This document shows positions 4,362 through 21,492 of a stretch of 64,000 nt of DNA, piece by piece (within the stretch, counting starts at the first letter, position 1; each line of letters starts with the position of its first letter). The notes under the pieces are model-generated. The model searched no databases. It worked only from the letters and a program-made list of their open reading frames with translations, and was not told the DNA's origin. The stretch comes from Actinomycetota bacterium (GTDB lineage Bacteria; Actinomycetota; Acidimicrobiia; Spongiisociales; UBA11373). A program made the translations under genes and the position numbers. The DNA lies in contig JAHLKU010000003.1 in assembly GCA_020444505.1 (NCBI GenBank), positions 21,824 to 85,823 on the forward strand, given 5' to 3'.

Positions 4362-5297
4362 ATGACCACGCGCGTCTCCGACCGGCTCGTCTGGGCGGTC
4401 GTCCTCCTCATCACCTTCGGGTGGGGCACGCTCCCGGTGCTGATCCGGGTGGCGCTGCGGGAGGACCTGCGCCCGCTGGTCATCGCCGCAGCACCCTCGA
4501 TCGTGGCGGCCGTCGCCCTGGCGCTGTTCCTGGTGGCGACGCGGCGCCTCCACTCGATCGGCTCCACCGAGGTCCGCATCGGGCTGGCGCTGGCGGCGTT
4601 GAGTGTGGTGCTGCCCAACCTGCTCCGCCCCCTGGCTGCCGAGCACGCGTCGGCGGGGTTCCTGGGGCTCACCTCGGCGCTGGTGCCGCTGACCACGGTG
4701 TTGCTGGCGCACTTCGTCCTCGCCGACGAACGGCTGAAGGCCGCCACGGCGGGCGGCCTGCTGCTCGGCCTGGCCGGCGTGGCGACCCTGGTGCTGTCGG
4801 GCGACTCCGGCCTCGGCGCCAAGGGCAACGTGGTGCTGGCGGCCGCCTACGCGATGGGGAGCGTGCTGTCGGTGTCGCTGTCGGCGGTGTTCGCCAAGCG
4901 CTTCGCCGGCCGGTACTCGGTGATGGGCGTGTCGTGGGTGCAGTTCGCCGCGGGGGCGGCGGTCCTGACCGCGGCAGCGCTGGTGTGGGAGGGGGTGCCG
5001 CCCAATCCGACACTGCTGGGGTGGGGCAGCCTCGTCTTCCTGGGCCTGCTCTGCACGTTCATGCCGGTGGTGCTCTTCTACTGGCTGCTGCAGCACGTCA
5101 CCGTCACCTACTCCACCATCATCGGGTATCTGATCCCGCTGGTGTCGGTGGTGGTGGGGTGGCTGTTCCTGGACGAGACCGTGGGGTGGGGGATCCTCCT
5201 CGGCGGCATCCTGATCCTCGGCGGGGTGGTCGTGACCGACCTCATCCGGGTCCGTGACGCCCGCCGGGAGCGGGCGGCCGCCGGCCGAACCCTCTGA
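4362..5297 (+). CDS. DMT superfamily (EamA-like) transporter
   Basis: 311 aa with about 10 TM segments and an EamA-like duplicated architecture. Confidence 0.75.
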   Translation: MTTRVSDRLVWAVVLLITFGWGTLPVLIRVALREDLRPLVIAAAPSIVAAVALALFLVATRRLHSIGSTEVRIGLALAALSVVLPNLLRPLAAEHASAGFLGLTSALVPLTTVLLAHFVLADERLKAATAGGLLLGLAGVATLVLSGDSGLGAKGNVVLAAAYAMGSVLSVSLSAVFAKRFAGRYSVMGVSWVQFAAGAAVLTAAALVWEGVPPNPTLLGWGSLVFLGLLCTFMPVVLFYWLLQHVTVTYSTIIGYLIPLVSVVVGWLFLDETVGWGILLGGILILGGVVVTDLIRVRDARRERAAAGRTL

Positions 5298-5378: not shown

Positions 5379-6656
5379 ATGCGACAGCCGCTCCGTCTCG
5401 ACGTGCACACCGTCGAGATCGACCAGATCCGCTTCGGGGACCACACCGGGGTGGACGACGGAGCCCTCGTCGTCGACCGCGACGCCCTGGCGGCCCTGAT
5501 CCTCGAGGACCCCCGGATCGCCGGCGTGGACGTCCGGATCGCCCAGCCCGGCGACGACATCCGCATCATCGGGTGCCTGGACGCCGTCGAGCCCCGCTGC
5601 AAGGTGGGAGATGGGTCGGTGTTCCCCGGGTTCCTCGGCGGCATGGAGACCGTCGGGGAGGGCGAGACCCTCCGCCTCGGCGGGGTGGCGGTGCTGGCGT
5701 CGAGCCGGTACCCGCAGCCGTTCTCAGGGCTGCTCCAGGCCCGCGAGGCGGTGGTGGACATGCGGGGGCCCACCGCCAACCTCAGCCCCTTCGGGCGGAC
5801 GCTCAACCTGGTGCTGGCCTACACCCCCAACCCCGACATCGACAACGAGGACTACGACGACGCCATCCGCCGCAGCAACCTGAGGGTGGCCGAGCACCTG
5901 GCTACGCAGGCGCTCGACGCCCCCCGCGCCTCCACCACCACGTTCGACATCTCCGAGCAGGACCCCGACCTCCCCAACGTGGTGTACTTCTACCAGTTGC
6001 AGGGCCAGGGCCCCATGGCCGACACCTACCTCTACGGCCGGGTCATCCACAACCTGGTGCCCACGGTGATGCACCCCAACGAGGCGCTCGACGGTGCCAT
6101 CGTGTGCGGGGTGTACGTGTACGGGTGCTACAAGAACGTCACCTACCTGCACCAGAACAACCCGATCATCTGGGAGTTGCAGCGCCGCCACGGCAAGGAG
6201 TTGAACTTCGCCGGGGTCGTCATCAACCGGGGCCACAACTACACCCAGGAGGACAAGGAGCGGTCCTCGCGGTGGGCGGCCAAGCTGATCGAGTTCCTCG
6301 AAGCCGACGGCGCCGTGTTCACCGCCGAGGGCGGCGGCAACTCGGCGATCGACATGATGCTCGCGGTCCAGTACCTGGAGCAGGCCGGGGTGGAGACCGC
6401 GGTGGTGTCCTCGGAGGCCGCCGGCGAGGACGGCTACGACTTCCCGCTCTTCTACACCGTGCCCGAGGCGGACGCCATCGTCAGCGTCGGGTCGGAGGAC
6501 GAGGTGTTCGACATGCCGGAGGTGGCCGAGGTCATCGGCGGCGACACGCTGTTGGACGGCCAGCCCGCCGCCGGGCCGTACCGGCTCAAGATGTACTTCC
6601 AGTTCTGCGGCACCCAGCAGGTCGGCGGCAACGTGCTCGTGGGGAGGGTCCACTGA
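5379..6656 (+). CDS. grdE: glycine/sarcosine/betaine reductase component B proprotein (GrdE/GrdG/GrdI family; alpha/gamma subunits, pyruvoyl enzyme precursor)
   Basis: N-terminus MRQPLRLDVHTVEIDQIRFGD ... DVRIAQPGDDIRIIGCLDAVEPRCKV parallels GrdE family N-termini. GGGAGG RBS upstream of ATG 5379. The stop overlaps the grdB start (TGATG). Confidence 0.75.
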   Translation: MRQPLRLDVHTVEIDQIRFGDHTGVDDGALVVDRDALAALILEDPRIAGVDVRIAQPGDDIRIIGCLDAVEPRCKVGDGSVFPGFLGGMETVGEGETLRLGGVAVLASSRYPQPFSGLLQAREAVVDMRGPTANLSPFGRTLNLVLAYTPNPDIDNEDYDDAIRRSNLRVAEHLATQALDAPRASTTTFDISEQDPDLPNVVYFYQLQGQGPMADTYLYGRVIHNLVPTVMHPNEALDGAIVCGVYVYGCYKNVTYLHQNNPIIWELQRRHGKELNFAGVVINRGHNYTQEDKERSSRWAAKLIEFLEADGAVFTAEGGGNSAIDMMLAVQYLEQAGVETAVVSSEAAGEDGYDFPLFYTVPEADAIVSVGSEDEVFDMPEVAEVIGGDTLLDGQPAAGPYRLKMYFQFCGTQQVGGNVLVGRVH

Positions 6657-7966
6657 TGGTGAGGGTCGCCCACTACATCAACCAGTTCTTCGCCGGCATC
6701 GGCGGCGAAGACAAGGCCGACCACCCCTTCGAGGTGCGCGAGGGCGCCGTCGGGCCCGGCCGGGCCGTGGAGATGGCGGGCGGTGGCGACGTGGAGATCG
6801 TCCAGACCCTGGTCTGCGGCGACAACGCCTTCCACGCCGACACCGAGGGCACCCTGGCAGCGATCGAGGCGGCCCTCGCCGAGAGCAAGCCGGACCTGCT
6901 CATCGCCGGCCCCGGGTTCAACGCCGGGCGGTACGGCCTGGCGTGCGCCGCGGTGTGCGCCGTCGCCACCGAGAAGCTGGGCATCCCGGCGCTCACCGGC
7001 GTGTACGTCGACGCCCCCGCCGTGGACGTGTACCGCAGCCGGGTGGTGATGGTGCCGACCGGCGACAGCGCGGCGGGGATGAAGGACGCCGTCGAGGGCA
7101 TGCTCCGGGTGGGCCTGCGCCTGGCGGCAGGGGAGCCGCTCGGTCCCGCCGAGGAGGACGGGCGCATCCCCATGGGCTTCCGCAAGGCCGTGGTCACCGA
7201 GACCCCGGTGGCGGCCCGGGTCGTGGACATGCTGATGGCCAAGCTGCGGGGCGAGCCGTTCACCAGCGAGGTCGCCCTGCCCGAGCCGGCCGAGGCGGTG
7301 CCGCCGGCGCCGCCGGTGGCCGACCTGTCCGGGGCGGTGGTGGCGGTGGTCACCGACGGCGGCCTGGTGCCGGTGGGCAACCCCGACGGCATCGAGTCGT
7401 CGAGCGCCACGAAGTGGGCCCGCTACCCGATCGACGACCTGGTCCGCAACGACGACCCCTCGTTCATGTCCATCCACGCCGGGTACGACTCGCAGTGGGT
7501 GGACGCCGACCCCGACCGCCTGGTGCCCATCGACGCCCTGCTGGACCTGGAGGCCGAGGGCGTGATCAAGGAGGCGCACCCCTACTACTACGTCACCACC
7601 GGCACCGGCACCACCGTCACCCACGCCGAGCGGATGGGGGAGGAGATCGCCAAGCAGTTGATCTCCGACGGCGTCCACGCCGTGCTGGTCACCAGCACCT
7701 GAGGCACCTCCACGCGTTGCGGTGCAACGCTCGCAAAGATGATCGAGAAGGCCGGCATCCCGGCGGCACACCTGGCGGCGATGACGTCGATGGCCAAGAT
7801 CGCCGGGTCGAACCGGATCATCTCCTCCGGCCTCATCCCCCATCCGGTCGGCGACCCGTCGCGCTCTCCGGAGGAGGAGCTGAAGTGGCGCACCGGGCAG
7901 GTCCGCAAGGCCCTGAACGCCGCGGCGACGCCGCTCGACGAGGCCCTGATCTTCCCGGACTGGTAA
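6656..7966 (+). CDS. grdB: glycine/sarcosine/betaine reductase selenoprotein B (GrdB/GrdF/GrdH family) with in-frame UGA (Sec) at 7700..7702
   Basis: The ORF 6656..7702 ends in ...VLVTST-UGA. Read-through continues in frame (UGTSTRCGATLAKMIEKAGIPAAH ... PHPVGDPSRSPEEELKW...) into track ORF 7739..7966. The total is 436 codons, the typical GrdB size. The flanking motif STU-GT-x-TRCGAT matches the family Sec site. A SECIS-like hairpin lies at 7714..7730. Confidence 0.8.
7714..7730 (+). promoter_or_regulatory. SECIS-like stem-loop downstream of grdB UGA (GCGTTGC-GGU-GCAACGC)
   Basis: Perfect 7-bp inverted repeat beginning 11 nt after UGA 7700..7702, with GGUG in the apical region. Spacing and position match bacterial SECIS elements. 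Confidence 0.55.
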
Positions 7967-7982
7967 TCGAGTGAGGGACGCC

Positions 7983-9410
7983 ATGATCCAACCCGCCATC
8001 CTCCACACCGCCTACGCCCTGGCCCACGCGCCGGACTTCGTCCGCTACGGCTCCAAGCCCACCAGGGAGCTGCCGGCCAACCCCGGGCTGCTGGAGGAGA
8101 TGACGGCGGCGCTGCGGCCCTGGGACGAGGTGGTGGCCTACCCGCCGAACCAGGTGTTCATCGGCAACCTGAGCCCCGACGAGCTCGCCGCCACCCCGCG
8201 GCCCTGGTACGAGCACCTGGTCCCCGACGCCTCGCCCATCGGCCCGTGGGGGCGCATCGTCACCCAGGCGGCGCTCTACGGCCTCATGAAGCTGTGCGAC
8301 GACTTCGACCTCCTGACGATCACCGAGGCGGTCGCCGCCGAGGCCCGCGAGGAGCTCACCCGCTTCGAGCACCGGCGGGACCGCATCACCGGCGTCCCGC
8401 CGGAGGACCTGGCGGCGCTCATCGGCAAGCACGACGGCCTCACCCTGTACCACCGCGGCGAGGTCGCGGGGTTCCTGCGCACCGCCCACGAGCAGGACCC
8501 CTCGCTGGACGCCCATGTGCTGTTCGAGAACCTGGCCTGCAAGGCGACGGCGGTGCTGGCCGTCAACGACGCGTTCGATGGTGGCCCCATCGGCCCCGAA
8601 GACGTCGACTACCTGCTCAACACCGGCGAGGAGGCCGTCGGCGACCGCTACCAGCGCGGCGGCGGCAGCCTGTCCAAGGCCGTCGGCGAGGTGGTGGGGT
8701 GCCTCAACGCCACCGGGTCGGACATCAAGGCGTTCTGCTCGGCCCCGGTGCACGCCATCATCTCCGCCTCGGCGATGGTGGCCTCCGGCCTCCACAAGTA
8801 CGTGGTGGTGCTCGGGGGCGGGTCGCAGGCGAAGATGGGCATGAAGTTCCGGGCCCACCTCCGCAACGGCGTCCCGGTGATGGAGGACTGCCTGGCGTCG
8901 ATGGCGTTCGTCGTCGGGCCGGACGACGGCACCGGCATGCGGGTGCGGCTCGACGTCACCGGCAAGCATCCCATCGGCGCCGGGTCGTCGGCCCAGCACG
9001 TGTACCAGGCGCTGGTGGTGGAGCCGCTGGAGCGGGCCGGCATGACCATGACCGACGTGGACCGCTACGCCGTCGAGATGCACAACCCCGAGATCACCGA
9101 ACCGGGCGACAGCGGCGACGTCCCCAAGACCAACTACCGCACGCTGGCGGCGATGGCGGTGCTGCGGGGCGAGATCGAGCGGGACCAGATGGACGAGTTC
9201 TCCGCCACCCACGGCATGCCCGGGTTCTCGCCCACCCAGGGCCACATCCCCGCCGGGGTGCCGTTCCTCGGCCACGCCCTGGCGGCCATGCGGCGCGGCG
9301 AGATGGACAACGCGATGATCGTCGCCAAGGGCAGCCTGTTCCTCGGCCGGATGACGCAACTCGTCGACGGGGTGTCGTTCCTCGTCGAGGCGCCGTCCGA
9401 GCCGTCGTGA
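7983..9410 (+). CDS. grdC: glycine reductase complex component C, beta-subunit-like protein (GrdC family, thiolase/FabH-like fold)
   Basis: Motifs PNQVFIGNLSPDELA, QRGGGSLSKA, GCLNATGSDIKAFCSAPVHA, YAVEMHNPEITEP, GHIPAGVPF and GSLFLGRMTQLVDGVSF resemble the GrdC family. ATG 7983 is preceded by GAGGGA. The track start at 7971 is an upstream GTG. Confidence 0.65.
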   Translation: MIQPAILHTAYALAHAPDFVRYGSKPTRELPANPGLLEEMTAALRPWDEVVAYPPNQVFIGNLSPDELAATPRPWYEHLVPDASPIGPWGRIVTQAALYGLMKLCDDFDLLTITEAVAAEAREELTRFEHRRDRITGVPPEDLAALIGKHDGLTLYHRGEVAGFLRTAHEQDPSLDAHVLFENLACKATAVLAVNDAFDGGPIGPEDVDYLLNTGEEAVGDRYQRGGGSLSKAVGEVVGCLNATGSDIKAFCSAPVHAIISASAMVASGLHKYVVVLGGGSQAKMGMKFRAHLRNGVPVMEDCLASMAFVVGPDDGTGMRVRLDVTGKHPIGAGSSAQHVYQALVVEPLERAGMTMTDVDRYAVEMHNPEITEPGDSGDVPKTNYRTLAAMAVLRGEIERDQMDEFSATHGMPGFSPTQGHIPAGVPFLGHALAAMRRGEMDNAMIVAKGSLFLGRMTQLVDGVSFLVEAPSEPS

Positions 9411-9447
9411 CCGTGATGGATCGAGCAGAGGAAGGAGGTGCACTGCA

Positions 9448-9915
9448 ATGGATCTGAAGGGAAAGCGCATCGTCGCCATCGGCGAGCGCGAGGGCATCAA
9501 CGGCCCCAGCCTGAAGCTGCTCGCCGAGTCGGCGGGTGCGACGGTGGTCTTCAGCGTCACCCAGTGCTTCGTCTGAACGGCTGGTGGAGCCATGGACCTG
9601 GACGACCAGGCGAACGTGAGTCGCCTGGCCGAGGAGTCCGGGACCGACGACATGCTCGTCGTCCTGGGCCAGCCGGATCCCAACAGTGCGGGCCTCTTCG
9701 CAGAGACCGTCACTCGAGGCGATCCGACCTGGGCAGGTCCGTTGGCCGGAGTCCCGTTGGGGCTCCCCGTGTATCACATCCTCGAAGAGGAGATCAAGGA
9801 GTCGATGGACCCCGACCTGTATCAGGAGCACGTGGGCCTGATGGAGTTGTCGGCGGACGTCGACGAGATCGTGAAGTGGGTCAAGTTCTACCGCGAGGGC
9901 GGCGGCGAGGCCTGA
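9448..9915 (+). CDS. grdA: glycine/sarcosine/betaine reductase selenoprotein A (GrdA) with in-frame UGA (Sec) at 9574..9576
   Basis: Strong RBS GAAGGAGG 8 nt upstream of ATG 9448. The N-terminal ORF MDLKGKRIVAIGEREGINGP ... VVFSVTQCFV ends at UGA. It continues in frame as TAGGAMDLDDQ ... ETVTRGDPTWAGPLAGVPLGLPVYHILEEEIKE (track ORF 9592..9915). The CFV-U-TA(A/G)GAMDL motif is the canonical GrdA Sec site. Confidence 0.85.
9579..9591 (+). promoter_or_regulatory. candidate SECIS apical hairpin downstream of grdA UGA (GGCU-GGUGG-AGCC); uncertain
   Basis: Short 4-bp stem with a GGUGG loop starting 2 nt after the UGA. Alternative stems exist at 9597..9610 and 9606..9628. The exact SECIS fold cannot be resolved by eye. 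Confidence 0.25.
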
Positions 9916-9931
9916 CAGTCAGGAGACGACG

Positions 9932-11395
9932 ATGTCCCAGGAGATCATGAAGCTCGACATGTTCGTCCACGGCGAGTGGCGCGCCGGATCGACCGGCGAC
10001 GTCGTCGAGGTGATGAACCCGGCCAAGGACGAGGTGCTCGCCACCGTGCCCGACGGCGGCGCCGAGGACCTCGACGCCGCGATGGCGTCGGCGGCCGAGG
10101 GCCTGAAGGTGTGGCGCGCCACCCATCCCCGCACGCGGGCCCAGGTCATCGCCAAGATGGCCGCGACCCTGCAGGAGCGGGCCCAGGAGTACGCCGAGTT
10201 GTACAGCCTCAACTCGGGCGGCTCGATCGGCACCGGGCTGTGGACCATGTACGACGTGGCCGGCCGGCGCTTCGAGTACTACGCCGGGCTCGCCGACAAG
10301 GTCCGGGGCGACACGTTCGTCACCCCCGGCGAGTTCCTCAGCTACACGCTGCGGGAGCCGGTGGGCATCACCGGGCACATCATCCCGTGGAACGGGCCGC
10401 TGTGGATCGGCAGCCGCACCATCGCCCCGGCGCTGGCCGCAGGGAACTCGGTGGTCGTGAAGCCGTCGAGCGAAGCGCCCGTCACCCTGCTCAAGTTCGC
10501 CGAGATGGCCGTGGAGTGCGGCCTGCCGCCCGGGGTGCTCAACGTGGTCACCGGCCGGGGCAGCGGCATGGGCGACCTGTTCACCCGCCACGAGGCCCTC
10601 GACGGCATCTACTTCACCGGGTCCACGTGGACCGGGCGGAAGATCCTCGCGAACACCGCGACCACCAACGTGCGGACGGTGATGGAACTGGGCGGCAAGT
10701 CGCCCAACATCGTGTTCGCCGACGCCGACATGGAGGCTGCCCTCGACGGGGCGATCATGGCGATCTTCGCCAACTCGGGGCAGATCTGCGTGGCCGGGTC
10801 CCGGCTGCTGGTGCAGGCGTCCATCCACGACGAGTTCGTGGAGCGCCTCGCCGCCAAGGCCGCCGAGATCACCATCGGCGGCCCCGAGGCGAACGCCCTC
10901 ATGGGCCCGCTGATCACCTCCGCCCAGCGCGAGAAGGTGCTCGAGTACATCGCCTCCGGCAAGGAGGAGGCCGACCTGGTGACCGGCGGCGGCGTCCCGG
11001 ACGACCCGGCGCTGCAGAAGGGCTACTTCGTGGCGCCGACGATCTTCGACGGCGTGCCCAACACCGCCCGGATCGCCCGCGAGGAGATCTTCGGGCCGGT
11101 GCTCTCCGTCACCTCGTTCGAGGACTTCGACGAGGCGATCACCCTGGCCAACGACACCGAGTACGGCCTGGCGTCGGCGGTGTGGACCGGCGACGTCGCC
11201 ACGGCGCACAACGCAGCACAGGCGCTGGAGGCCGGCCAGGTGTACATCAACCACTACTACACGGCCGCCTTCGAGACGAGCCGGTCGCCGTACAAGGCGA
11301 GCGGCCACGGCATGAGCGAGGGCCCCGACGCCATCTACGAGTACCTCAACCAGAAGGCCGTCAGCGTCAAGCTGGGCGAAGGCGAGGGGTGGTAG
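9932..11395 (+). CDS. NAD(P)-dependent aldehyde dehydrogenase family protein
   Basis: 487 aa with an ALDH catalytic Cys motif (GQICVAGSRLLV), ELGGKSP, and the N-terminal Rossmann GxxxxG region. Confidence 0.85.
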   Translation: MSQEIMKLDMFVHGEWRAGSTGDVVEVMNPAKDEVLATVPDGGAEDLDAAMASAAEGLKVWRATHPRTRAQVIAKMAATLQERAQEYAELYSLNSGGSIGTGLWTMYDVAGRRFEYYAGLADKVRGDTFVTPGEFLSYTLREPVGITGHIIPWNGPLWIGSRTIAPALAAGNSVVVKPSSEAPVTLLKFAEMAVECGLPPGVLNVVTGRGSGMGDLFTRHEALDGIYFTGSTWTGRKILANTATTNVRTVMELGGKSPNIVFADADMEAALDGAIMAIFANSGQICVAGSRLLVQASIHDEFVERLAAKAAEITIGGPEANALMGPLITSAQREKVLEYIASGKEEADLVTGGGVPDDPALQKGYFVAPTIFDGVPNTARIAREEIFGPVLSVTSFEDFDEAITLANDTEYGLASAVWTGDVATAHNAAQALEAGQVYINHYYTAAFETSRSPYKASGHGMSEGPDAIYEYLNQKAVSVKLGEGEGW

Positions 11396-11491: not shown

Positions 11492-12511
11492 GTGAAGGTT
11501 GCAGTGTTCACCGGGGTAGGCAGCGTGGAGATCCGGGAGGAACCGGATCCGGTGGCCGGCCCCCAGCAGGTCGTCATCGAGGTGGCCGCGTGCGGGATCT
11601 GCACGTTCGAGCGGCGCCTCTTCGCGGGCGACAAGCAGTGGTACCCGGTGAACCCGGGTCACGAGGCCTCCGGCACGGTCGTCGCCGTCGGCGAGGCGGT
11701 CGACGGTCTCCCCGGCTCGCCGCAGGTGGGCGACCGGGTCACCTTCGACCTCCTCACCCGCTGCGGCACCTGCAACCAGTGCCGCCGGGGCAAGTCGTCG
11801 CTGTGCCGGATGCGGCAGGGCCGCGTTCTCAGCGACGGCACGGTCTCGTTCGGTGGGTTCGCCGGCAAGGTCGCCATCGACGCCAAGTCGGTGTACCCGA
11901 TCGGCGATGCCCCGTTCACCCACGCCGCCATGGGCGAGCCGATCGCCTGCTGCGTGCACTCCATCCGCCAGGGCGGCCTGCTGCCCCGCGACCGGGTGGC
12001 CATCATCGGCGGCGGCCTGATGGGCCGCCTCCACCTGGCGCTGGCCCGCCTGGAGGGCGCCGGCCCGATCGGCGTCATCGACGTCTCGGAGCAGCGCCTC
12101 GCCGAGGCGACCGCCGCCGGCGCCGACTGGGTGGCCACCCCCGAGACCGCCCTCGAGGTGGGCGGCAAGCAGGACGTGGTCTTCGTCACCGCCATGGCAG
12201 GGGTGGACCTGGCCGTGGAGATGGCCGACCTCGGCGGCACGGTGGTCCTGTACAGCGCATTCGACAAGGACCTGCCGGCCACCGTCGGCGCGGACAAGTC
12301 GCACCGCGAGGAGGTCGCCATCGTCGGGGCCTTCAGCCAGGAGCCCGCCGACTGGCGCACCGGCTCGGCCCACATCCGCAGCGGCGTCATCGCCGACGCC
12401 CTCGATGCGCTGGTCACCGCCGAGTACCCGTTCTCCCAGGTGGAGGACGCCCTCAAGCTGGTGACCTCCGAGCCCACGTACCGCGTGTTCGTCGAGCCCG
12501 AGAGCGAGTGA
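11492..12511 (+). CDS. zinc-dependent alcohol dehydrogenase (MDR family; threonine/sorbitol dehydrogenase-like)
   Basis: Catalytic Zn ligands (C..H..E) and a structural Zn motif CGTCNQCRRGKSSLC. Rossmann motif GGGLMG. GTG start with GGAGG upstream. Confidence 0.8.
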   Translation: MKVAVFTGVGSVEIREEPDPVAGPQQVVIEVAACGICTFERRLFAGDKQWYPVNPGHEASGTVVAVGEAVDGLPGSPQVGDRVTFDLLTRCGTCNQCRRGKSSLCRMRQGRVLSDGTVSFGGFAGKVAIDAKSVYPIGDAPFTHAAMGEPIACCVHSIRQGGLLPRDRVAIIGGGLMGRLHLALARLEGAGPIGVIDVSEQRLAEATAAGADWVATPETALEVGGKQDVVFVTAMAGVDLAVEMADLGGTVVLYSAFDKDLPATVGADKSHREEVAIVGAFSQEPADWRTGSAHIRSGVIADALDALVTAEYPFSQVEDALKLVTSEPTYRVFVEPESE

Positions 12512-13824
12512 TGCCGGCAGAGGTCGTCGCCGGCGTCGACGTGGGCAGCAGTGCGGCGCGCGCCGTCGCGATCGATCGCGACGGCGCCGTGGTGGCCTCC
12601 TCCCGGGCCCCGTACCCCGCACACGACGGCAGCCTGGCCGGCGAGGTGGACCCCGCGGTCTGGCTCGCCGGCCTCGTCGCCGCCCTCGACGGGCTCGGTG
12701 CGCGGCCCCTGGCGCTCGGCGCCGGCGGCCACGGCCCCACCACGGTCGCCTCGACCGGCGAGCTGGCGCTGACGTTCCGCCACCCCGCCGGCGCCACCGA
12801 GGGCCCGGTGGGCCAGCACGCCGCCCACCTGCGGGTGTTGCGGGACCGCCTCGGCGACCACGTCGAGCCCCGCCAGATGTGGGACCACCTGCTGGCCCGT
12901 CTCGGTGGGGACCCCTCCACGCAGAGCATGTGGCCGGGTGAGGAGCCCCTGGAAGGCTTCGGGTCGCCGATCCCGGCCGGCACCGCCGTCGGGACCAGCG
13001 CCGGCGACCACGGCGAGCCGGAGGGGATGACCCTGGTGCCCGGCGCCAACGACGCCTACATGACCTCGTGGGCGTCGGCCATCGACACCCCCGGCCGGGC
13101 CTTCGACCCGGGCGGCAAGACCGGCGGGCTCGGCGTGGCGATCCGCGCCGAGGGGGAGCACGCCGAGATCGCCAAGTTCGGCATGCCGAGCCACGTGCCG
13201 GGCGTCGCCATCGTGGGGGGCCCGGTGGCCAGCCACGGGGCGATGATGGACTGGTGGTCGGCCGTCACCGGCCGCCCCGTCGCGGAACTGCTGGACCTGG
13301 CCGCCGACGTCGAGCCCGGCTCGCACGGCGTGATGGTGCTGCCGTTCCTCGAGGGGGAGCGTGCGCCCCGCTGGAACCTGGGCCTGCGGGCCGAGATCAC
13401 CGGCATCGGCGCCGAGACCGGCGTCGGAGTGCTGACCAGGGCGCTGGTGGAGTCCACGGCCTACGGCCTCGCCCACATCGCCCGCGACCTGGCCGGGCAC
13501 GGCATCGCGCTGGAGCGGGTCGTGTCGAGCGGCGGCCCGGCCCGCAGCCCGCTGTGGACGTCGATCAAGGCTGCTGTGCTGGACGTGCCGGTGGATGTGC
13601 CGGACTGCGACGAGATGAGCGCCTACGGGGCGGCTCTGGCCGCCGGGGCGGCGCTGGGATGGTGGCCGCGCCCGGGGGAGGGGGTCCCCGGCGACTGGCC
13701 GATGCCGGAGGTGACCACCTACGAGCCGAAGCCGCTCGAGGTGTATCGCAAGGGATTGGACCGGTTCATCGAACTCGGCGACGAGGCGGTGGCCCGGCTC
13801 GAGAGAAGCCAACCGAACGAGTAA
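12511..13824 (+). CDS. FGGY-family carbohydrate kinase (xylulokinase/LsrK-like)
   Basis: N-terminal VAGVDVGSSAARAVAID and C-terminal FGGY motifs (SGGPARSPLWTSIKAAVLDVPV ... AYGAALAAG). The start overlaps the upstream stop. Confidence 0.75.
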   Translation: MPAEVVAGVDVGSSAARAVAIDRDGAVVASSRAPYPAHDGSLAGEVDPAVWLAGLVAALDGLGARPLALGAGGHGPTTVASTGELALTFRHPAGATEGPVGQHAAHLRVLRDRLGDHVEPRQMWDHLLARLGGDPSTQSMWPGEEPLEGFGSPIPAGTAVGTSAGDHGEPEGMTLVPGANDAYMTSWASAIDTPGRAFDPGGKTGGLGVAIRAEGEHAEIAKFGMPSHVPGVAIVGGPVASHGAMMDWWSAVTGRPVAELLDLAADVEPGSHGVMVLPFLEGERAPRWNLGLRAEITGIGAETGVGVLTRALVESTAYGLAHIARDLAGHGIALERVVSSGGPARSPLWTSIKAAVLDVPVDVPDCDEMSAYGAALAAGAALGWWPRPGEGVPGDWPMPEVTTYEPKPLEVYRKGLDRFIELGDEAVARLERSQPNE

Positions 13825-13833
13825 GGAGAACGC

Positions 13834-14607
13834 ATGGAATACATGTCCTCGGCCATCGGGGCCGCCAAGACCCGCCGGGCCTCCCGGTTCCTCGAGGAGG
13901 ACGGCCGCGGCTTCCTGGTGGCCATCGACATGCAGTCGGCGTCGGGATCGGGCCCCGACCTGGACGTCGTCGAGAAGATCGCAGCCGGCGGCCCCAACGG
14001 CATCCTGGTGTCCTGGCAGATCGCTCGCCGCTACCCCGAGGCGTTCCGCAACTGCGGCATGATCCTCCGCATCGACGGCACCACCACGATGCTCGGGAAC
14101 TACGGCGCCGGCGACCAGTTCGCCCAGATGTACGAGATCGAGATGGCCGCCCGCATCGGCGCCGACGCCGTGGTCTGCATGGCGTTCCCCGGCGCCGACG
14201 ACGACGTCGTCGGCATGCGCAAGCTGGTCGCCATGGTCAACGAGGCCGAGAAGGTCGGCATGCCGGTGATCGCCGAGTCGATCCCCGGGTCGTGGGCCAA
14301 GACCGTCCCGTGGGACGCCGAGCACATCGCCAAGGCCGCCCGCATCTGCGTCGAGGTGGGCGCCGACGCCATCAAGACGATGATGCCGGAGGACCCCTCG
14401 GAGATCCCCGATGTCATCGCCAACATCGAGGCCCCGGTGTTCTGCCTGGGCGGTCCGAAGAAGGAGACCGAGGACGAGGCGGTCGAGTACGCCCGCACCG
14501 TCGTGGCCGCCGGTGCCAGCGGCATCGCCTTCGGCAGGAACGTGTTCGGGGCCAAGGACCCGACCGCCATGGTGCAGCGCCTGTACGAAGCCGTCCACGG
14601 CGCCTGA
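13834..14607 (+). CDS. class I aldolase, DhnA/FbaB family (DeoC/LacD-type TIM barrel; LsrF-like)
   Basis: 257 aa with DhnA-family motifs (GFLVAIDMQ ... RIDGTTTML ... GADAVVCMAFPG ... GMPVIAE ... FCLGGPKKETEDEAVEYARTVVAAGASGIAFGRNVF). Confidence 0.7.
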   Translation: MEYMSSAIGAAKTRRASRFLEEDGRGFLVAIDMQSASGSGPDLDVVEKIAAGGPNGILVSWQIARRYPEAFRNCGMILRIDGTTTMLGNYGAGDQFAQMYEIEMAARIGADAVVCMAFPGADDDVVGMRKLVAMVNEAEKVGMPVIAESIPGSWAKTVPWDAEHIAKAARICVEVGADAIKTMMPEDPSEIPDVIANIEAPVFCLGGPKKETEDEAVEYARTVVAAGASGIAFGRNVFGAKDPTAMVQRLYEAVHGA

Positions 14608-16533: not shown

Positions 16534-16573
16534 GCCGGGCTCCCAGAGCAACCGATTGGGAGGAACACCGACC

Positions 16574-17734
16574 ATGAGACGACTTGGTATCAAGTTGGTG
16601 GCGCTCATCGCCGTCCTGGGGCTGATCGCAGCCGCATGCGGCGACGACGACGCCGACACGACGGCCGCGCCGTCGACGACCGAGGCCGCTACGACGACCG
16701 AGGCCGCGACGACGACCGAGGCCGCGACGACGACCGAGGCCGCGACGACGACCGAGGCGATGGCCAACCCCGCCGACTTCAACGGCGACGGCGTGGTCCG
16801 CATCGGTGTGGCCACCGACGGCCCGCGCGACGACGGCGCCTACTACCAGGCGCTGGTGGAGAGGGTCGAGCGGATCTCGGCGGACAACGGCTTCGAAGCG
16901 CCGGTGGTCGTCGACGAGATCGACACGGCCAACTCCCGCGTCGAGCTGGAGAACCTGGCCGCCCAGAACGTGGACATCATCGCCATCGGCTCGGAGGCCG
17001 TGGCGCGGGACAACGAGGATCTCTTCACCACCTACGACGAGATCTTCTGGTACTGCAACTGCGGGTCCGGCTATGCCGACACCCCGGGCCTCCTCCGCAG
17101 CGCCGACAGCGGCGCCGAGCTGAACATCTCGGCCGGCTATGCCGCCGGGCTGCTGCTCCAGGAGCGTGGTGGCGACAGCGTGGCCTTCCTGGGCTGCTGT
17201 GACCTCCCCTTCGAGTTCGAGTCCCTGTGGGGCTTCGAATTCGGCCTGGCGCAGGTGGACCCGACGTTCACCGTCACCTACACGCCGACCGGCCAGTTCC
17301 CGTACGACTTCAACAACGTCGCCGGTGCGACGGAGGCGTACAACAACGCGGTCGCCGAGGGTGCGGATGCGGTCTACCCGTTCCTGGGCGGGGCGCACGA
17401 GCCCATCGTGCAGCTCGCCAATGCGGACGGGCTGATCGTGAACACGGCCGGTTCGTCGCAGGGTTGTGAGCGCGACGACCTCGACTACGACTTCGAGGTC
17501 ATGTTCGACGCCGGCGACTACCTCGAGCCGCTGTTCGAGGAGATCCTGGCCGGGACGGCCGAAGAGGGCACCGCCCGCTACTTCACCGTGGGCATCGACC
17601 CGCAGGTGGGTGCGGTGTTCTGCGACGCCACCCCCGAGCAGGTGCAGATGCTGGCGGACTTCAACGCCCGCATCGGGGCCGGCGACTTCGCCGACAAGAT
17701 CTACGAGATCCTGTCCGAGGCGTACGGCTTCTAG
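16574..17734 (+). CDS. BMP-family ABC transporter substrate-binding lipoprotein (PnrA-like; nucleoside/purine-type)
   Basis: Lipoprotein signal (LIAAAC lipobox), low-complexity (TTTEAA)n linker, then a BMP/PnrA-like periplasmic binding fold. Confidence 0.75.
   Translation: MRRLGIKLVALIAVLGLIAAACGDDDADTTAAPSTTEAATTTEAATTTEAATTTEAATTTEAMANPADFNGDGVVRIGVATDGPRDDGAYYQALVERVERISADNGFEAPVVVDEIDTANSRVELENLAAQNVDIIAIGSEAVARDNEDLFTTYDEIFWYCNCGSGYADTPGLLRSADSGAELNISAGYAAGLLLQERGGDSVAFLGCCDLPFEFESLWGFEFGLAQVDPTFTVTYTPTGQFPYDFNNVAGATEAYNNAVAEGADAVYPFLGGAHEPIVQLANADGLIVNTAGSSQGCERDDLDYDFEVMFDAGDYLEPLFEEILAGTAEEGTARYFTVGIDPQVGAVFCDATPEQVQMLADFNARIGAGDFADKIYEILSEAYGF
16673..16762 (+). repeat. five tandem 18-bp repeats (ACGACGACCGAGGCCGCG) encoding the (TTTEAA)n linker of the lipoprotein
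   Basis: Direct tandem repeat visible in the DNA and as EAATTT x4-5 in the protein, between the lipobox and the binding domain. Confidence 0.9.
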
Positions 17735-17744
17735 CCGCTCGATT

Positions 17745-17780
17745 GCCCGTGGCGGGCGCCTCCGGGCGCCCGCCACGGGC
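17745..17780 (+). other. perfect 16-bp-stem intercistronic hairpin between the SBP and ATPase genes
   Basis: GCCCGTGGCGGGCGCC-tccg-GGCGCCCGCCACGGGC immediately after the SBP stop (17734) and before the ATPase RBS. Confidence 0.6.
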
Positions 17781-17814
17781 CCGACCGACACCCGAGGGAG
17801 GAGCCACGACGACC

Positions 17815-19389
17815 ATGCCGGCCGAACACAGCGGTGACGCACCGGTCCTGCAGTTGCGGGAGATGACGAAGCGCTACGGCGAGGTCGTCGCGTGCGACCA
17901 CGTCGACCTCGACCTGCATCGCGGCGAGATCCACGGGATCCTCGGCGAGAACGGGGCGGGCAAGTCCACCCTCATGAAGATGGTCATCGGCCTGGCGCTG
18001 CCGGACGCCGGGACCATCCGCCTCGACGGGGAGGCGGTGCGCTTGCACGACCCCGTCCAGGCCGCCCGGCACGGCATCGGCATGGTCCACCAGCACTACA
18101 GCCTGGTGGGCGCCCTGACCGTGTGGGAGAACGTGGCGCTCGGAGAGAAGGGCGCCCTCGACCCCGGGTCCACCCGCGACCGGGTCGTCGAGATCACCGA
18201 GCGGTACGGCCTCGAGGTCGACCCGGACGCCTACGTCCGCGACCTCACCGCCGGCGTCCGCCAGCGGGTCGAGATCATCAAGTGCCTCCGTCACGAGCCG
18301 CGCATCATCATCCTGGACGAGCCCACCGCGGTGCTCACGCCGGCGGAGTCGGAGCACCTGTTCGAGGTGCTGGGCGAAGGCGTGCGGCGCGAGGGGTGGG
18401 CGGTGGCCCTGGTGAGCCACAAACTGGACGAGGTGCTCGCCGCCACCGATCGCATCACCATCATGCGCAACGGCCTGGTGGTGGACCGGGTGGCCACCGC
18501 GGACGCCGACGCCCACTCGCTCGCCAGGGAGATGGTGGGCCGCGAGGTCACCCTCCGCACCGGGGCGGCGGCGATCGGTTCGGTGGAGGCTCCCGCTGCG
18601 GCCGCCGGGGAGGCGGCAGAGGTGAAGGGCGAGCCGATCCTGGAGGTGCGCGACGCCGCCACCCGCGCCGCCGACGGCAGGGTGCTGCTCGACGGCCTCT
18701 CGCTGGAGGTGCACCCCGGCGAGGTGGTGGGTGTCGCCGGCGTCGAGGGGAACGGCCAGACGCCGCTGGTCAGGGTGCTGGAGAGCCTTCTCCGCCTGGA
18801 GACCGGCAGCGTCCGGGTGGACGGAGAGGAGATCCCCACCTGCAGGGCAGGTGCCATGGGGGCCGCCGGCATCGCCGTCATCCCCGCCGACCGGCACCAC
18901 TCGGGGTGCGTGCCCGACATGACGGTCGCCGAGAACCTGGTGCTCGGGTCGGTGGACCGGTTCGCCGAGTGGGGCCTGCTGAAGCGGGAGGACATCAAGG
19001 CGCACGCCAGGGTGCTGATCGAGGAGTTCGACATCCACTGCCCGTCGTGCGACACGCCGCTCGGCCAGTTGTCGGGCGGGAATCAGCAGCGGGTGGTGCT
19101 GGCCCAGGCCCTGTCGGTGGGCCCCAAAGTGCTGGTGGCCCACCAGCCCACCAGGGGCCTCGACGTCGGGGCCATCGAGTACATCGGGGGGCGCATCACG
19201 GCGGCCGCCGAGTCGGGGATCGGGGTGCTGCTCCTGTCCACCGACCTGGGCGAGATCGCCGCCCTCTCCGACCGCATCGTCGTCATCTACGAGGGCAGGA
19301 TCATCGGGGAGATGAGCCGGGCCGAGTTCGACATGGAGCGCCTCGGCCTGCTGATCGGCGGCTCCACCGCCGGGGAGGACGCCGCATGA
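17815..19389 (+). CDS. ABC transporter ATP-binding protein with duplicated ATPase domains (sugar/nucleoside CUT2-type)
   Basis: Two Walker A (GENGAGKST; GVEGNGQT), two signature (LSGG) and Walker B motifs. GAGGGAGG RBS. Confidence 0.85.
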   Translation: MPAEHSGDAPVLQLREMTKRYGEVVACDHVDLDLHRGEIHGILGENGAGKSTLMKMVIGLALPDAGTIRLDGEAVRLHDPVQAARHGIGMVHQHYSLVGALTVWENVALGEKGALDPGSTRDRVVEITERYGLEVDPDAYVRDLTAGVRQRVEIIKCLRHEPRIIILDEPTAVLTPAESEHLFEVLGEGVRREGWAVALVSHKLDEVLAATDRITIMRNGLVVDRVATADADAHSLAREMVGREVTLRTGAAAIGSVEAPAAAAGEAAEVKGEPILEVRDAATRAADGRVLLDGLSLEVHPGEVVGVAGVEGNGQTPLVRVLESLLRLETGSVRVDGEEIPTCRAGAMGAAGIAVIPADRHHSGCVPDMTVAENLVLGSVDRFAEWGLLKREDIKAHARVLIEEFDIHCPSCDTPLGQLSGGNQQRVVLAQALSVGPKVLVAHQPTRGLDVGAIEYIGGRITAAAESGIGVLLLSTDLGEIAALSDRIVVIYEGRIIGEMSRAEFDMERLGLLIGGSTAGEDAA

Positions 19390-20495
19390 CCGCCCGCACC
19401 GACACGCTCCTCGACCCCAGGGTCCGCAGCGGGCTCGAGATGGCCGGGCTGTACGTGCTCAGCCTCGCCGGCGCCCTGCTGCTGTCCGGTCTGCTGGTGG
19501 CCGCCACCGGCAACTCGGCGTTCAAGGTGTTCGGCGCCCTCCTCGACGGCGCCTTCCTCGCCCCCGGCCGCTGGGGCCAGACCCTGGTCGTGGCCGCCCC
19601 GATGCTGCTGGTGGCGCTCGGCATGGTGGTCGGCGTCAAGGCCGGCTTCTTCAACATCGGCCAGGAGGGACAGCTGCTCATCGGCGCCATGGCCATGGCA
19701 TGGGTGGGCACCCGGTGGCCCGGCCCCGGCCCGCTGCTGCTGTTCGTGGGGCTGGCACTGTCGATGGCATTCGGGGGCGGCTGGGCCGGCCTCGCCGCGC
19801 TGATGCGATTCCGGCGGGGGGTCCCGGAGGTGATCTCGACGCTGCTGCTGGTGTTCGTCGCCGCGCAGTTCAGCGGGTACGCCATCACCGCCGACTGGCT
19901 GTTGCGGGACCTGGACACCACCGGCCCGACCCGGTCGGTGAGCAGCGCCCCGCTGGACGAGGCCATCCGGCTGCCGGTGCTCCGCATCTTCGGCAACGAG
20001 TTCAACTGGGGCATCGTCATCGCCCTGGCGCTGGCGGTGCTGCTCGCCGTGGCGCTGGTGCGGTCGGTATGGGGGTTCCGGCTCCGCATGCTGGGCCACA
20101 ACCCGGCCGTCGCCCAGAAGGCAGGCGTCGCCTCCACCCGCATGGGCAGCCTCGCCCTGTTCCTGTCCGGCGGGCTCGCCGGGCTGGCCGGGGCGGTGAT
20201 GCTGGCCGGCGGCTCGTCGGGCTTCCGGGTCACGTCGGGGTTCTCGCAGAACTTCGGGTGGCAGGGCCTGCTGGTGGCCCTGCTGGCCCGCAGCAGCCCG
20301 ATCCTGGCCATCCCGATGGCCATCGTGTTCGCCGCGCTCCGCACCGGGAGCGGCTTCCTGGCCGCCACCGGGGTGGACCGCAAGATCGTCGACGTGGTGC
20401 AGGCGTTGCTGGTGTTGGCGCTGCTGATCCCACCGGCGGTCCAGTTCATCCGCGATCGCCGCAAGGCGCTGGCGATGGCCGGAGAGGAGGCATAG
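19386..20495 (+). CDS. ABC transporter permease (CUT2/BMP-system type)
   Basis: Polytopic membrane protein. The start overlaps the ATPase stop (ATGA). Confidence 0.8.
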   Translation: MTARTDTLLDPRVRSGLEMAGLYVLSLAGALLLSGLLVAATGNSAFKVFGALLDGAFLAPGRWGQTLVVAAPMLLVALGMVVGVKAGFFNIGQEGQLLIGAMAMAWVGTRWPGPGPLLLFVGLALSMAFGGGWAGLAALMRFRRGVPEVISTLLLVFVAAQFSGYAITADWLLRDLDTTGPTRSVSSAPLDEAIRLPVLRIFGNEFNWGIVIALALAVLLAVALVRSVWGFRLRMLGHNPAVAQKAGVASTRMGSLALFLSGGLAGLAGAVMLAGGSSGFRVTSGFSQNFGWQGLLVALLARSSPILAIPMAIVFAALRTGSGFLAATGVDRKIVDVVQALLVLALLIPPAVQFIRDRRKALAMAGEEA

Positions 20496-20496
20496 C

Positions 20497-21492
20497 GTGG
20501 GCGGGTTCTTCGAATCGCTGGGCGACCTCTTCCGGGCCCTGTTCGAGGTGTTCACCTCGGCGACCATGTACGGCAGCGCGGTGCGTCTCGGCGCCCTGCT
20601 GGCGTTCGCCGCGATCGGTGAGATGGTTGCCGAGAAGGCAGGCACCATCAACATCTCGGTGGAGGGCTCGCTGCTCGCCGGCGCCTTCACCGGCACGCTG
20701 GCCTACCACCAGACCGGCTCCACCGCCCTCGGCCTGCTGGCCGGGGTGGCCGGCGGGCTGATCATCTCCTGGATCCAGGCCAACATGAGCCATCGCCTCA
20801 CCGCCGACCAGTTCGTGGTGGGGCTCACCGCCAATGTGCTGGTGCTGGGCGTGGCCGGCTTCCTCAACGGCGTCATCGACCCGAAGGCGGCGAGCGCCGG
20901 GATCCTCGAGATCCCGCTGCTGTCGGACATCCCGTTGATCGGCCCCGCCCTGTTCGGGCAGCGCTGGCCGCTGTACCTGCTGTACCCGATCATCCCGCTG
21001 ACCTGGTGGCTGCTGTACCGCACCCGCTGGGGCCTGGAGGTGCGGGCGGTGGGGGAGAACCCGCAGGCCGCCGACGTGTCCGGCATCGACGTCAACAAGC
21101 GGCGGCGCCAGTCGATCTACTACGGCGGCATCCTCGCCGGCCTCGGCGGCGCGTTCATCGTGCTGGGCCCGATCGGGTCGTTCGAGACCGGCATCATCGG
21201 CGGGCGGGGCTTCATCGCCATCGCCGCCGTCTACTTCGGCGGATGGCGCCTCGGCGGCGTGGTGCTGGGGTCGTTCCTGTTCGGCCTGGCCGACGGGTTC
21301 CGCCTGGCGCTGCCGTCGGTGATCGCCAACGTGGACCCGCCGCTGGAGGGGGCGATGATCGACGGCCTCTCCAACGCCTCGTTCCTGGCGGCGCTGCCGT
21401 ACGTGCTGACCCTGCTGGTGATGTACCTGATCACCAAGGAGTTCCGCCAACCGGCGGCTCTGTCCCAGCCGTTCATCCGCGGGCTGCGGTAG
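20497..21492 (+). CDS. ABC transporter permease (second permease of the BMP system)
   Basis: Polytopic membrane protein with a GTG start 1 nt after the previous stop. Confidence 0.8.
   Translation: MGGFFESLGDLFRALFEVFTSATMYGSAVRLGALLAFAAIGEMVAEKAGTINISVEGSLLAGAFTGTLAYHQTGSTALGLLAGVAGGLIISWIQANMSHRLTADQFVVGLTANVLVLGVAGFLNGVIDPKAASAGILEIPLLSDIPLIGPALFGQRWPLYLLYPIIPLTWWLLYRTRWGLEVRAVGENPQAADVSGIDVNKRRRQSIYYGGILAGLGGAFIVLGPIGSFETGIIGGRGFIAIAAVYFGGWRLGGVVLGSFLFGLADGFRLALPSVIANVDPPLEGAMIDGLSNASFLAALPYVLTLLVMYLITKEFRQPAALSQPFIRGLR

Follow-up and report, generated by a model that had tools for sequence, protein, structure and literature searches.

A Grd-type selenoprotein reductase locus with no predicted pyruvoyl site in an Acidimicrobiia genome: a candidate betaine-type system

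The 64 kb stretch of DNA analysed here (the window; ~72% G+C), from contig JAHLKU010000003.1 of the Actinomycetota metagenome-assembled genome (MAG) GCA_020444505.1, class Acidimicrobiia, carries a genuine Grd-type reductase system with two selenoproteins, encoded by the consecutive genes grdE, grdB, grdC and grdA. Its E subunit is predicted to have no pyruvoyl cleavage site, and its substrate is probably not glycine. We give an even chance to a betaine-type reductase that would act on an N-methylated glycine, with glycine betaine as the leading candidate, and yield an amine and an acetyl-thioester on GrdC.

Grd-type reductases are the textbook enzymes of Stickland-fermenting Firmicutes; their presence is read as a marker of trimethylamine formation and of glycine, sarcosine or betaine reduction. 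The system in the window belongs to a distinct and populous clade native to Acidimicrobiia and Chloroflexi that is common and unstudied. Literature searches returned no paper linking Acidimicrobiia with glycine reductase, and none describing this clade. Here we present the features of the locus and its relatives, together with the substrate readings that they allow.

Gene map and identity of the locus

Gene frames were set by a frame plot of the G+C content at third codon positions (GC3) together with translation, and the resulting features are listed in Table 1. All four products give strong matches to Grd families in hidden Markov model searches (E-values 1e-58 to 1e-179). A first-pass annotation, made from the sequence alone, had placed the four consecutive genes at 5379-9915, with one in-frame UGA each in grdB and grdA and with aldehyde and alcohol dehydrogenase genes directly after the cluster; coordinates and frames bear this out, the TGAs lying at 7700 and 9574. 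The E protein is identical to MCB2222833.1 from a MAG annotated as 'Actinobacteria bacterium'. The same locus occurs in independent assemblies of three sequencing runs, with identical products and the same open reading frames split at the TGAs.

Selenocysteine codons

The high-GC3 frame of grdB and grdA runs on past both TGAs. For comparison of the TGAs and the hairpins behind them, 26 homologous loci from GTDB species representatives were used; the TGA lies at the identical codon in 26 of 26 GrdB homologues and in all 20 GrdA homologues found. Folding gives a putative selenocysteine insertion sequence (SECIS) hairpin behind the UGA of grdB (Table 1), with the consensus GCGUUGC-GGN-GCAACGC across the 26 loci. 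The proteins of these loci are 44-100% identical, and the stem shows just two single-sequence changes (a G-U wobble and a G-A mismatch), synonymous third positions included; the third base of the loop alone varies more widely. This near-invariance at synonymous sites indicates a constraint at the RNA level, and because the stem does not vary, covariation in it is not measurable. A conserved hairpin, CCUGG-N4-CCAGG, also lies downstream of the UGA of grdA, with one compensatory pair in a nearby stem. The GC3 of grdA is 0.87 and its codon-usage distance of 0.176 is the largest of the cluster; constraints from RNA structure around the UGA are a possible cause of the low GC3.

Rfam at gathering thresholds delivered no SECIS or other RNA match in the window, and ARAGORN detected no tRNA-Sec in the window or in 23 of the related loci. 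None of selA, selB, selD and the tRNA-Sec gene was found within the window or the fetched flanks of the related loci (at most 10 kb).

Gene callers break both grdB and grdA at the TGAs, as they would if these were true stops or errors in a decayed or non-functional locus. That explanation is extremely improbable in view of the shared codon position in all homologues, the persistence of frame, GC3 signal and protein conservation beyond the TGA, and the conserved hairpin that follows the UGA. Because the three sequencing runs were assembled independently to the same locus with the same split reading frames, the TGAs are not sequencing errors.

The E subunit and the missing pyruvoyl site

The GrdE-like protein matches the Pfam family Gly_reductase with 401 bits and stays below the NCBIfam cut-offs for GrdG (305 bits, cut-off 780) and FarE (156 bits, cut-off 675). 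The pyruvoyl site was mapped to Cys242 in Clostridioides difficile GrdE (PMC9908766), and glycine and sarcosine enzymes reportedly share a conserved Asn-Cys pair at this site (PMC10838667, PMC9908766). Cys242 of Acetoanaerobium noterae GrdE (SGN-C-VSAC) aligns to Tyr246 of the window protein (CGV-Y-VYGC), and the preceding Asn is replaced by Val245. Among 115 full-length homologues the same column holds Tyr (81), Phe (19) or His (15) and never Cys. Where these enzymes have Asn-Cys, Enterococcus gilvus GrdI carries Ser-Phe. Both GrdI and FarE are reported to be unprocessed for want of the cleavage Cys, and GrdI is stated not to be a proprotein (PMC10838667).

The label 'pyruvoyl proprotein' given in the first-pass annotation is wrong, because the Cys242 position is occupied by Tyr246, as in the unprocessed GrdI/FarE type. 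As judged from this alignment, the window E subunit has no pyruvoyl cleavage site and is not a pyruvoyl proprotein; lacking the pyruvoyl-forming Cys, as GrdI does, it should be unprocessed and serve a substrate for which a Schiff base is unnecessary. Position 243, a Cys in the window protein and a Ser in most relatives, was considered as a cleavage site and rejected, since on alignment to canonical GrdE it corresponds to a Ser conserved throughout the superfamily, the true site lying three residues on.

The Asn-Cys pair is retained in only ~8 of the 145 nearest E-subunit representatives (50%-identity clusters), the usual residue in place of the Cys being Tyr, Phe or His. The E-subunit superfamily, counted as 264 clusters at E <= 1e-30 in a search of 1.84 billion cluster representatives, is thus for the most part probably non-pyruvoyl, and, with so few of the nearest representatives keeping the pair, it is mostly without assigned function.

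GrdB, GrdC and GrdA

The GrdB-like protein matches Pfam GRDB (PF07355) with 436 bits and the subfamily model TIGR01918 with 465 bits (cut-off 65). Its full-length match and the selenocysteine in TSTUGT place it in the glycine/sarcosine/betaine/D-proline reductase selenoprotein B superfamily, below the equivalog cut-offs for GrdF (NF040794, 475 vs 800 bits), GrdH (NF040795, 449 vs 775 bits) and GrdB (TIGR01917, 413 vs 602 bits). The motif reads TSTUGTSTRCGAT as against the canonical TSTUGTCTRCGAT, the family form being U-G-T-S/G-T-R-C; the first Cys of UxxCxxC is gone (UxxSxxC).

GrdC reaches 595 bits with the NCBIfam model reduct_C_beta (NF040746, cut-off 450), matches Pfam DUF5940 and ACP_syn_III, and keeps the conserved Cys in AFCSAP, the region of the thiolase-type nucleophile. 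It ends ~35 residues short of the canonical C-terminus, and its database matches are uniformly of this short form of ~475 residues. The AlphaFold model (mean predicted local distance difference test score 84, predicted template modelling score 0.88) resembles SpoVAD, FabH, HMG-CoA synthase and thiolases, and on this model GrdC is taken to be the thiolase-fold acyl-transfer subunit, component C beta. GrdA scores 198 bits with reduct_selen_A (NF040748, cut-off 130) and 195 bits with Pfam GRDA. The NCBIfam cut-offs that GrdA and GrdC pass are common to glycine, sarcosine and betaine reductases. Sequence searches of the PDB detected no solved homologue for any Grd component.

Placement and distribution of the clade

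Identities to the canonical subunits lie between 34% and 53%, with no preference for the glycine or the betaine type. In a neighbour-joining tree of the nearest 145 E sequences, the window protein falls among Acidimicrobiia and Chloroflexi proteins carrying Val-Tyr or Val-His; the canonical Asn-Cys proteins and GrdI lie in another clade. The best 120 E-subunit matches (90%-identity protein clusters) each share at least 58% identity with the window protein and come mostly from MAGs of Acidimicrobiia and Chloroflexi; clade members originate from saline, marine, sponge and groundwater metagenomes, and their public annotation is 'glycine reductase'. With at least 120 clusters at this level of identity the clade is common, and the first-pass description of the genes as unusual in a high-GC background does not hold, while its view of the host lineage as under-studied is supported.

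The same annotation had offered horizontal acquisition as an explanation. The GC3 of the cluster is 0.97-0.98 apart from grdA, and its codon-usage distances fall inside the span set by the 34 other genes of the window. Since GC3 and codon usage match those of the flanks there is no sign of recent transfer, which was rejected on these grounds; the whole block is also syntenic across many Acidimicrobiia MAGs.

Absent components and gene order

Three loci served as controls, from Enterococcus gilvus (pCR1A), A. noterae and Photobacterium. Their gene orders are trxB-trx-grdA-grdC-grdD-grdI-grdH-BCCT in E. gilvus, grdX-trxB-trx-grdE-grdA-grdB-grdC-grdD in A. noterae, and trxB-trx-grdA-grdA-grdC-grdD, followed by grdE-like and grdB-like genes, in Photobacterium; the E-B-C-A order of the window differs from all three and was rightly called non-canonical. 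Searches by tblastn for GrdD, thioredoxin (Trx), thioredoxin reductase (TrxB) and GrdX (E <= 1e-3; GrdX E <= 1) found none of them in the window or in ~35 related loci, and the same queries recovered the genes in the controls only, where grdD adjoins grdC in 3/3 and Trx and TrxB are present in 3/3. No match to PF02504 (GrdD/PlsX-like) was found among the window genes scanned. In the canonical glycine reductase complex, component C pairs GrdC with this PlsX-like GrdD, which forms acetyl phosphate. The statement that grdD, grdX and trxA/trxB are not adjacent is thus confirmed, but the set cannot be called complete, with GrdD gone from the locus family-wide and GrdC lacking its C-terminal tail of ~35 residues. 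Thioredoxin genes in the operon are a typical, though not strictly defining, feature of glycine reductase.

Neighbouring genes in the window

Table 1. Features of the Grd locus and its surroundings (positions in the window)
Feature	Position	Strand	Remarks
EamA/DMT-family transporter	4362..5297	+	directly upstream of grdE; Pfam EamA 114 bits
grdE-like	5379-6656	+	425 aa; stop overlaps grdB ATG by 1 nt
grdB-like	6656-7966	+	436 aa; in-frame TGA 7700-7702 = U349, motif TSTUGTSTRC
Putative SECIS hairpin of grdB	7714..7730	+	GCGUUGC-GGU-GCAACGC; 7-bp stem, 11 nt past UGA, by folding
grdC	7983-9410	+	475 aa
grdA	9448-9915	+	155 aa; in-frame TGA 9574-9576 = U43, CFVU motif
NAD-dependent non-acylating aldehyde dehydrogenase	9932..11395	+	Pfam Aldedh 524 bits
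Zn-dependent polyol(-phosphate) dehydrogenase	11492..12511	+	Pfam ADH_N and ADH_zinc_N
FGGY-family sugar kinase	12508..13824	+	Pfam FGGY_C 91 bits; weak xylulokinase, ribulokinase and glycerol kinase matches
Class I aldolase, DhnA/FbaB/LsrF type (Pfam DeoC/LacD)	13834..14607	+	Pfam DeoC 95 bits
Flavin reductase	14619-15134	+	Pfam match
VOC/glyoxalase-family protein	15128-15616	+	Pfam match
GntR/FCD regulator	15598-16386	+	Pfam match
CUT2-type ABC importer	16556..21492	+	Bmp-like binding protein, double ABC ATPase, two BPD_transp_2 permeases; Pfam

The aldehyde dehydrogenase (ALDH) behind grdA has its best NCBIfam matches in two models of betaine-aldehyde dehydrogenase (BADH; 468 and 445 bits, below the cut-offs). 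A role as a substitute for GrdD, in which it would turn the acetyl-thioester into acetaldehyde, was rejected: the protein is far closer to the hydrolytic class 1/2 enzymes and BADH than to the CoA-acylating type (methylmalonate-semialdehyde dehydrogenase model, 241 bits). The nearest solved relatives of the Zn dehydrogenase are galactitol-1-phosphate 5-dehydrogenase, iditol and sorbitol dehydrogenases and threonine dehydrogenase, and those of the aldolase are MJ0400, archaeal class I fructose-bisphosphate aldolase and LsrF. A role in the cleavage of 2-deoxy-sugars, of the deoxyribose-phosphate aldolase type, was dropped for this 'DeoC' protein, which belongs to the DhnA/FbaB/LsrF branch. PDB sequence searches with the binding protein, kinase, aldolase and Zn dehydrogenase returned no ligand-specific relatives. 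Catabolism of the riboflavin side chain (ribityl to formylmethylflavin, carboxymethylflavin and lumichrome), an idea prompted by the Bmp- and EamA-type transporters and the flavin reductase, was set aside, the flavin reductase lying outside the core.

Beyond the importer, on the minus strand at 21575-24728, lie genes for a BcrAD/BadFG-type activator ATPase and two HGD-D subunits, resembling 2-hydroxyacyl-CoA dehydratase (or benzoyl-CoA reductase). This set hints at oxygen-sensitive radical chemistry in a high-GC actinobacterial MAG. Genes for a PfkB kinase and an inosine-uridine nucleoside hydrolase (42226-44039) and, at some distance from them, a 5'-nucleotidase-family gene (30674-32092) amount to nucleoside salvage or catabolism ~20 kb from the Bmp-type importer, with no link to the cluster established.

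Gene contexts in related loci

The block from the EamA gene through the ABC importer is syntenic in ~10 Acidimicrobiia MAG loci, and the EamA gene adjoins the Grd genes in many loci of this class. The Spongiisociaceae loci yielded neither the flavin reductase nor the VOC protein. The Bmp-like binding protein (70% identity) follows directly after the aldolase in loci L010 and L013, and the importer arrangement also follows the aldolase in L039 and L042. In Chloroflexi the order E-B-C-A-ALDH is kept at 58-68% identity, ALDH with 60-62% being at the same level as the Grd proteins, while the aldolase and Zn dehydrogenase reach only ~30-35%, a complete mannose-type phosphotransferase system (PTS) takes the place of the ABC importer and FGGY kinase, and a non-orthologous EamA gene (26% identity over a 76-residue local alignment) sits at the same place. 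Because E-B-C-A-ALDH is conserved across phyla while the parts of the module diverge or are non-orthologous, it travels as a unit, to which the sugar-type module has been attached more than once.

A different context occurs in loci L033 (10001-19321) and L037 (10001-19205), where the operon reads E-B-C-A-MttB-OCD/mu-crystallin-corrinoid protein-MtmB. MttB of this type scores 458 bits against the trimethylamine methyltransferase model (cut-off 525), and a sugar-acid dehydratase-like enzyme, an HpcH aldolase, an Fe alcohol dehydrogenase and an Ldh_2 protein are encoded beside the operon. Other clade members lie near genes for BKACE, 3HCDH, GcvT/trimethylamine N-oxide demethylase-like and amidohydrolase proteins, and in one genome BKACE is part of the same operon as grdE and grdB. 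The sugar-module, BKACE and MttB contexts interleave in the E-subunit tree, tracking taxonomy and forming no separate deep branches, which argues for one shared substrate that would be fed by different routes.

Two loci on contigs of complete-genome scale, L039 (10001-12653) and L040 (10001-11914), contain grdC-grdA only, with no adjacent grdE or grdB and with the same neighbours (sugar module or BKACE set); since the pair and its neighbours are kept without grdE and grdB, the A/C pair and the B component appear to be separable modules. In sponge-associated Acidimicrobiia a gene of ~140 aa is inserted between grdC and grdA (L010 14330-14755, L039 11571-11996, L042 11547-11963), whose copy in L042 weakly matches retropepsin-like aspartic proteases (gag-asp_proteas). 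A variant in Chloroflexi (L022 10001-13963, L024 2071-6031, L025 10001-14017, L029 10001-13915) consists of a GrdE-like protein, a flavin amine oxidase (PF01593) and a GrdB-like protein with the conserved TGA. It has Asn-Tyr or Asn-Phe at the Cys242 position and no GrdC or GrdA within 10 kb, and the aldolase, Zn alcohol dehydrogenase and FGGY kinase are again adjacent.

Proposed reaction and substrate

The scheme that follows starts from the sequence features described above, and every chemical step in it is inferred from the canonical system. The B component (GrdE-like and GrdB-like) would bind a compound X-CH2-COO- in which X is already a good leaving group, so that neither a Schiff base nor a pyruvoyl cofactor would be needed. 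The selenolate of U349 would displace X and form a Se-carboxymethyl intermediate, the carboxymethyl group would move to U43 of GrdA, and attack by the neighbouring GrdA cysteine would yield the acetyl-thioester on the thiolase-fold GrdC. As the phosphotransacylase GrdD is missing from the locus, acetyl-CoA or acetate, rather than acetyl phosphate, is the probable form in which the acetyl group would leave. For the re-reduction of oxidised GrdA, the candidates are a housekeeping thiol system and the small NAD(P)H oxidoreductase encoded in the cluster. Glycine betaine itself might be made in situ by the co-inherited ALDH from the matching aldehyde, with (tri)methylamine as product, and the sugar module might supply either the aldehyde (a ketose-1-phosphate giving dihydroxyacetone phosphate (DHAP) and X-CH2-CHO) or NADH for the reductase.

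That the substrate might not be glycine had been raised as a possibility in the first-pass annotation and is now supported as probable by the missing Asn-Cys site and the GrdB score below the glycine model cut-off. An N-methylated glycine is favoured because the E subunit is GrdI-like and the co-inherited ALDH resembles betaine-aldehyde dehydrogenase, and because the BKACE contexts resemble carnitine breakdown and the MttB/MtmB contexts suggest methylamines. Several points weigh against this assignment. The candidate substrate is read from gene context; the GrdB-like protein scores no better with the betaine model (449 bits) than with the sarcosine model (475 bits), and the PDB matches of the ALDH to generic ALDH1/2 are about as good as those to BADH. 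The MttB and MtmB homologues both lack pyrrolysine. The cluster contains no BCCT- or OpuA-type betaine transporter, having a sugar-type ABC system and EamA instead, and the selenocysteine machinery, GrdD and Trx may lie elsewhere in the genome. Furthermore, we know of no natural compound that gives betaine aldehyde through a DHAP-dependent aldolase, which leaves the link between the sugar module and the reductase unexplained.

This link would be accounted for if the neighbouring genes made a new X-CH2-COO- substrate, other than an N-methylglycine, out of a sugar-like compound along the lines of sulfoglycolysis or the DHAP shunt. Import (ABC or PTS), phosphorylation (FGGY kinase or PTS) and the Zn polyol dehydrogenase would lead to a ketose-1-phosphate, the class I aldolase would release DHAP and X-CH2-CHO, and ALDH would provide X-CH2-COO- for the reductive release of X. 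A terminal amino, ammonio, thio, arsenic or N-heteroaryl substituent of a deoxy-pentitol or deoxy-pentulose could play the part of X. In two phyla, non-orthologous parts in different orders tie the sugar-type module to Grd genes; the module stands also beside C-A alone and beside the E/amine-oxidase/B variant, and is joined by an ALDH co-inherited directly after grdA; even the MttB context has an aldehyde-generating aldolase (HpcH), the sugar-acid dehydratase-like enzyme and the Fe alcohol dehydrogenase, and the lost pyruvoyl site suits any good leaving group. On the other hand no candidate compound can be named, the BKACE contexts are without the module, ALDH is absent from Spongiisociaceae loci that retain it, and taken alone the module resembles a commonplace ketose-1-phosphate route with glycolate, lactate or glycerate as its end product, so that we regard such a substrate as possible but rather unlikely. 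Equally tentative is the extended form of the idea, a self-contained E/B/C/A selenoenzyme without pyruvoyl group, GrdD or dedicated thioredoxin, which would deliver acetyl-CoA directly from a carboxymethyl-onium or carboxymethyl-heteroatom compound; this compound, so far unrecognised as a metabolite, would arise from a terminally substituted deoxy-sugar or polyol by a sulfoglycolysis-like kinase/dehydrogenase/aldolase/ALDH route.

If the neighbours served only as a source of electrons, coupling would be Stickland-like: oxidation of polyol and aldehyde would give NADH, to be spent on betaine imported separately through EamA. The two separate transporters (EamA by grdE, ABC or PTS by the sugar genes), a small NAD(P)H:flavin or F420-type oxidoreductase in both phylum-specific versions of the locus, and the 2-hydroxyacyl-CoA dehydratase-like set, with its hint of anaerobic metabolism, are consistent with such coupling, which we nevertheless hold to be unlikely. 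Donor and acceptor pathways in one operon would be unusual, and the flavin amine oxidase between E and B suggests a shared amine-bearing substrate and not a pure electron sink; this variant, which again adjoins an aldolase, a Zn dehydrogenase and a kinase, tips the balance from a purely redox link towards a metabolic one that involves an amine-bearing compound. Still less probable is an ordinary glycine reductase of the Stickland or reductive glycine pathway, with GrdD, Trx and TrxB elsewhere and unrelated neighbours, despite the public annotation and the cut-offs passed by GrdA and GrdC. The glycine-type controls possess the Asn-Cys site that the E subunit lacks, GrdB stays at 413 bits against 602 for the glycine model, the clade stands apart from the Asn-Cys clade in the tree, GrdD is absent at ~35 loci, and the neighbours are conserved across phyla.

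Labelled 'glycine reductase' in public databases, the clade has no pyruvoyl site, no GrdD and no thioredoxin genes at the locus, all three of them hallmarks, and is wired into different catabolic operons. If the betaine-type assignment is true, it would represent an overlooked source of methylamines outside the Firmicutes and a selenium dependence in abundant environmental Actinomycetota, and the GrdD-less system would test how the acetyl-thioester is resolved. A self-contained enzyme for carboxymethyl-onium or heteroatom compounds would, if true, amount to a new catabolic pathway, widespread in marine, sponge-associated and subsurface Acidimicrobiia and Chloroflexi.

Comparison with known systems

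Betaine reductase of the Eubacterium acidaminophilum type (GrdH/GrdI with GrdA, GrdC and GrdD), which turns glycine betaine into trimethylamine and acetyl phosphate, shares with the window the four protein families, the selenocysteines in B and A, and an E-family subunit, GrdI, that is likewise without the pyruvoyl-forming Cys and reported as unprocessed (PMC10838667); the relatives of the window system sit among betaine- and methylamine-related genes. The differences lie in the low identities (34% between E and GrdI, 44% between B and GrdH), a GrdB score of 449 bits against the GrdH cut-off of 775, and a clade separate from GrdI. In contrast to the E. gilvus locus, that of the window has no GrdD, Trx, TrxB or BCCT transporter, its GrdC lacks the C-terminal tail, UxxSxxC stands for UxxCxxC, and the order is E-B-C-A.

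Glycine reductase (GrdA-E, of the Acetoanaerobium/Clostridium sticklandii type) has the same subunit families, with CxxU in GrdA, TSTUGT in GrdB and a thiolase-fold GrdC, whereas the window system lacks the Asn-Cys242 proprotein site, scores 413 against 602 for GrdB, has no GrdD, GrdX, Trx or TrxB at the locus, and lies in a catabolic operon with ALDH, polyol dehydrogenase, kinase and aldolase. With respect to sarcosine reductase, it remains below the cut-offs for both GrdF (475 vs 800) and GrdG (NF040793, 305 vs 780).

The fluoroacetate reductase FarE/FarB of Synergistota is a Grd-derived B component, recognised only recently, in which FarE is without the processing cysteines and FarB has an altered CxxC; it shows that the Grd scaffold can displace non-amine leaving groups (PMC10838667). 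The window protein scores 156 bits against the FarE cut-off of 675 (NF053623), and, whereas FarEB reportedly uses the shared GrdA, GrdC and GrdD of its host, the window clade has its own A and C and no D at the locus. D-proline reductase (PrdA/PrdB) contains a homologous selenoprotein B and E-family domains, with weak matches to the window, where the scores are 83 for PrdB (cut-off 300) and 45 for PrdA (cut-off 700). PrdA is a pyruvoyl proprotein, and proline reductase works without GrdA or GrdC, both of which are present in the window. The E/amine-oxidase/B variant of Chloroflexi, with neither A nor C, resembles the two-component layout of PrdA/PrdB and could be a PrdAB-like relative.

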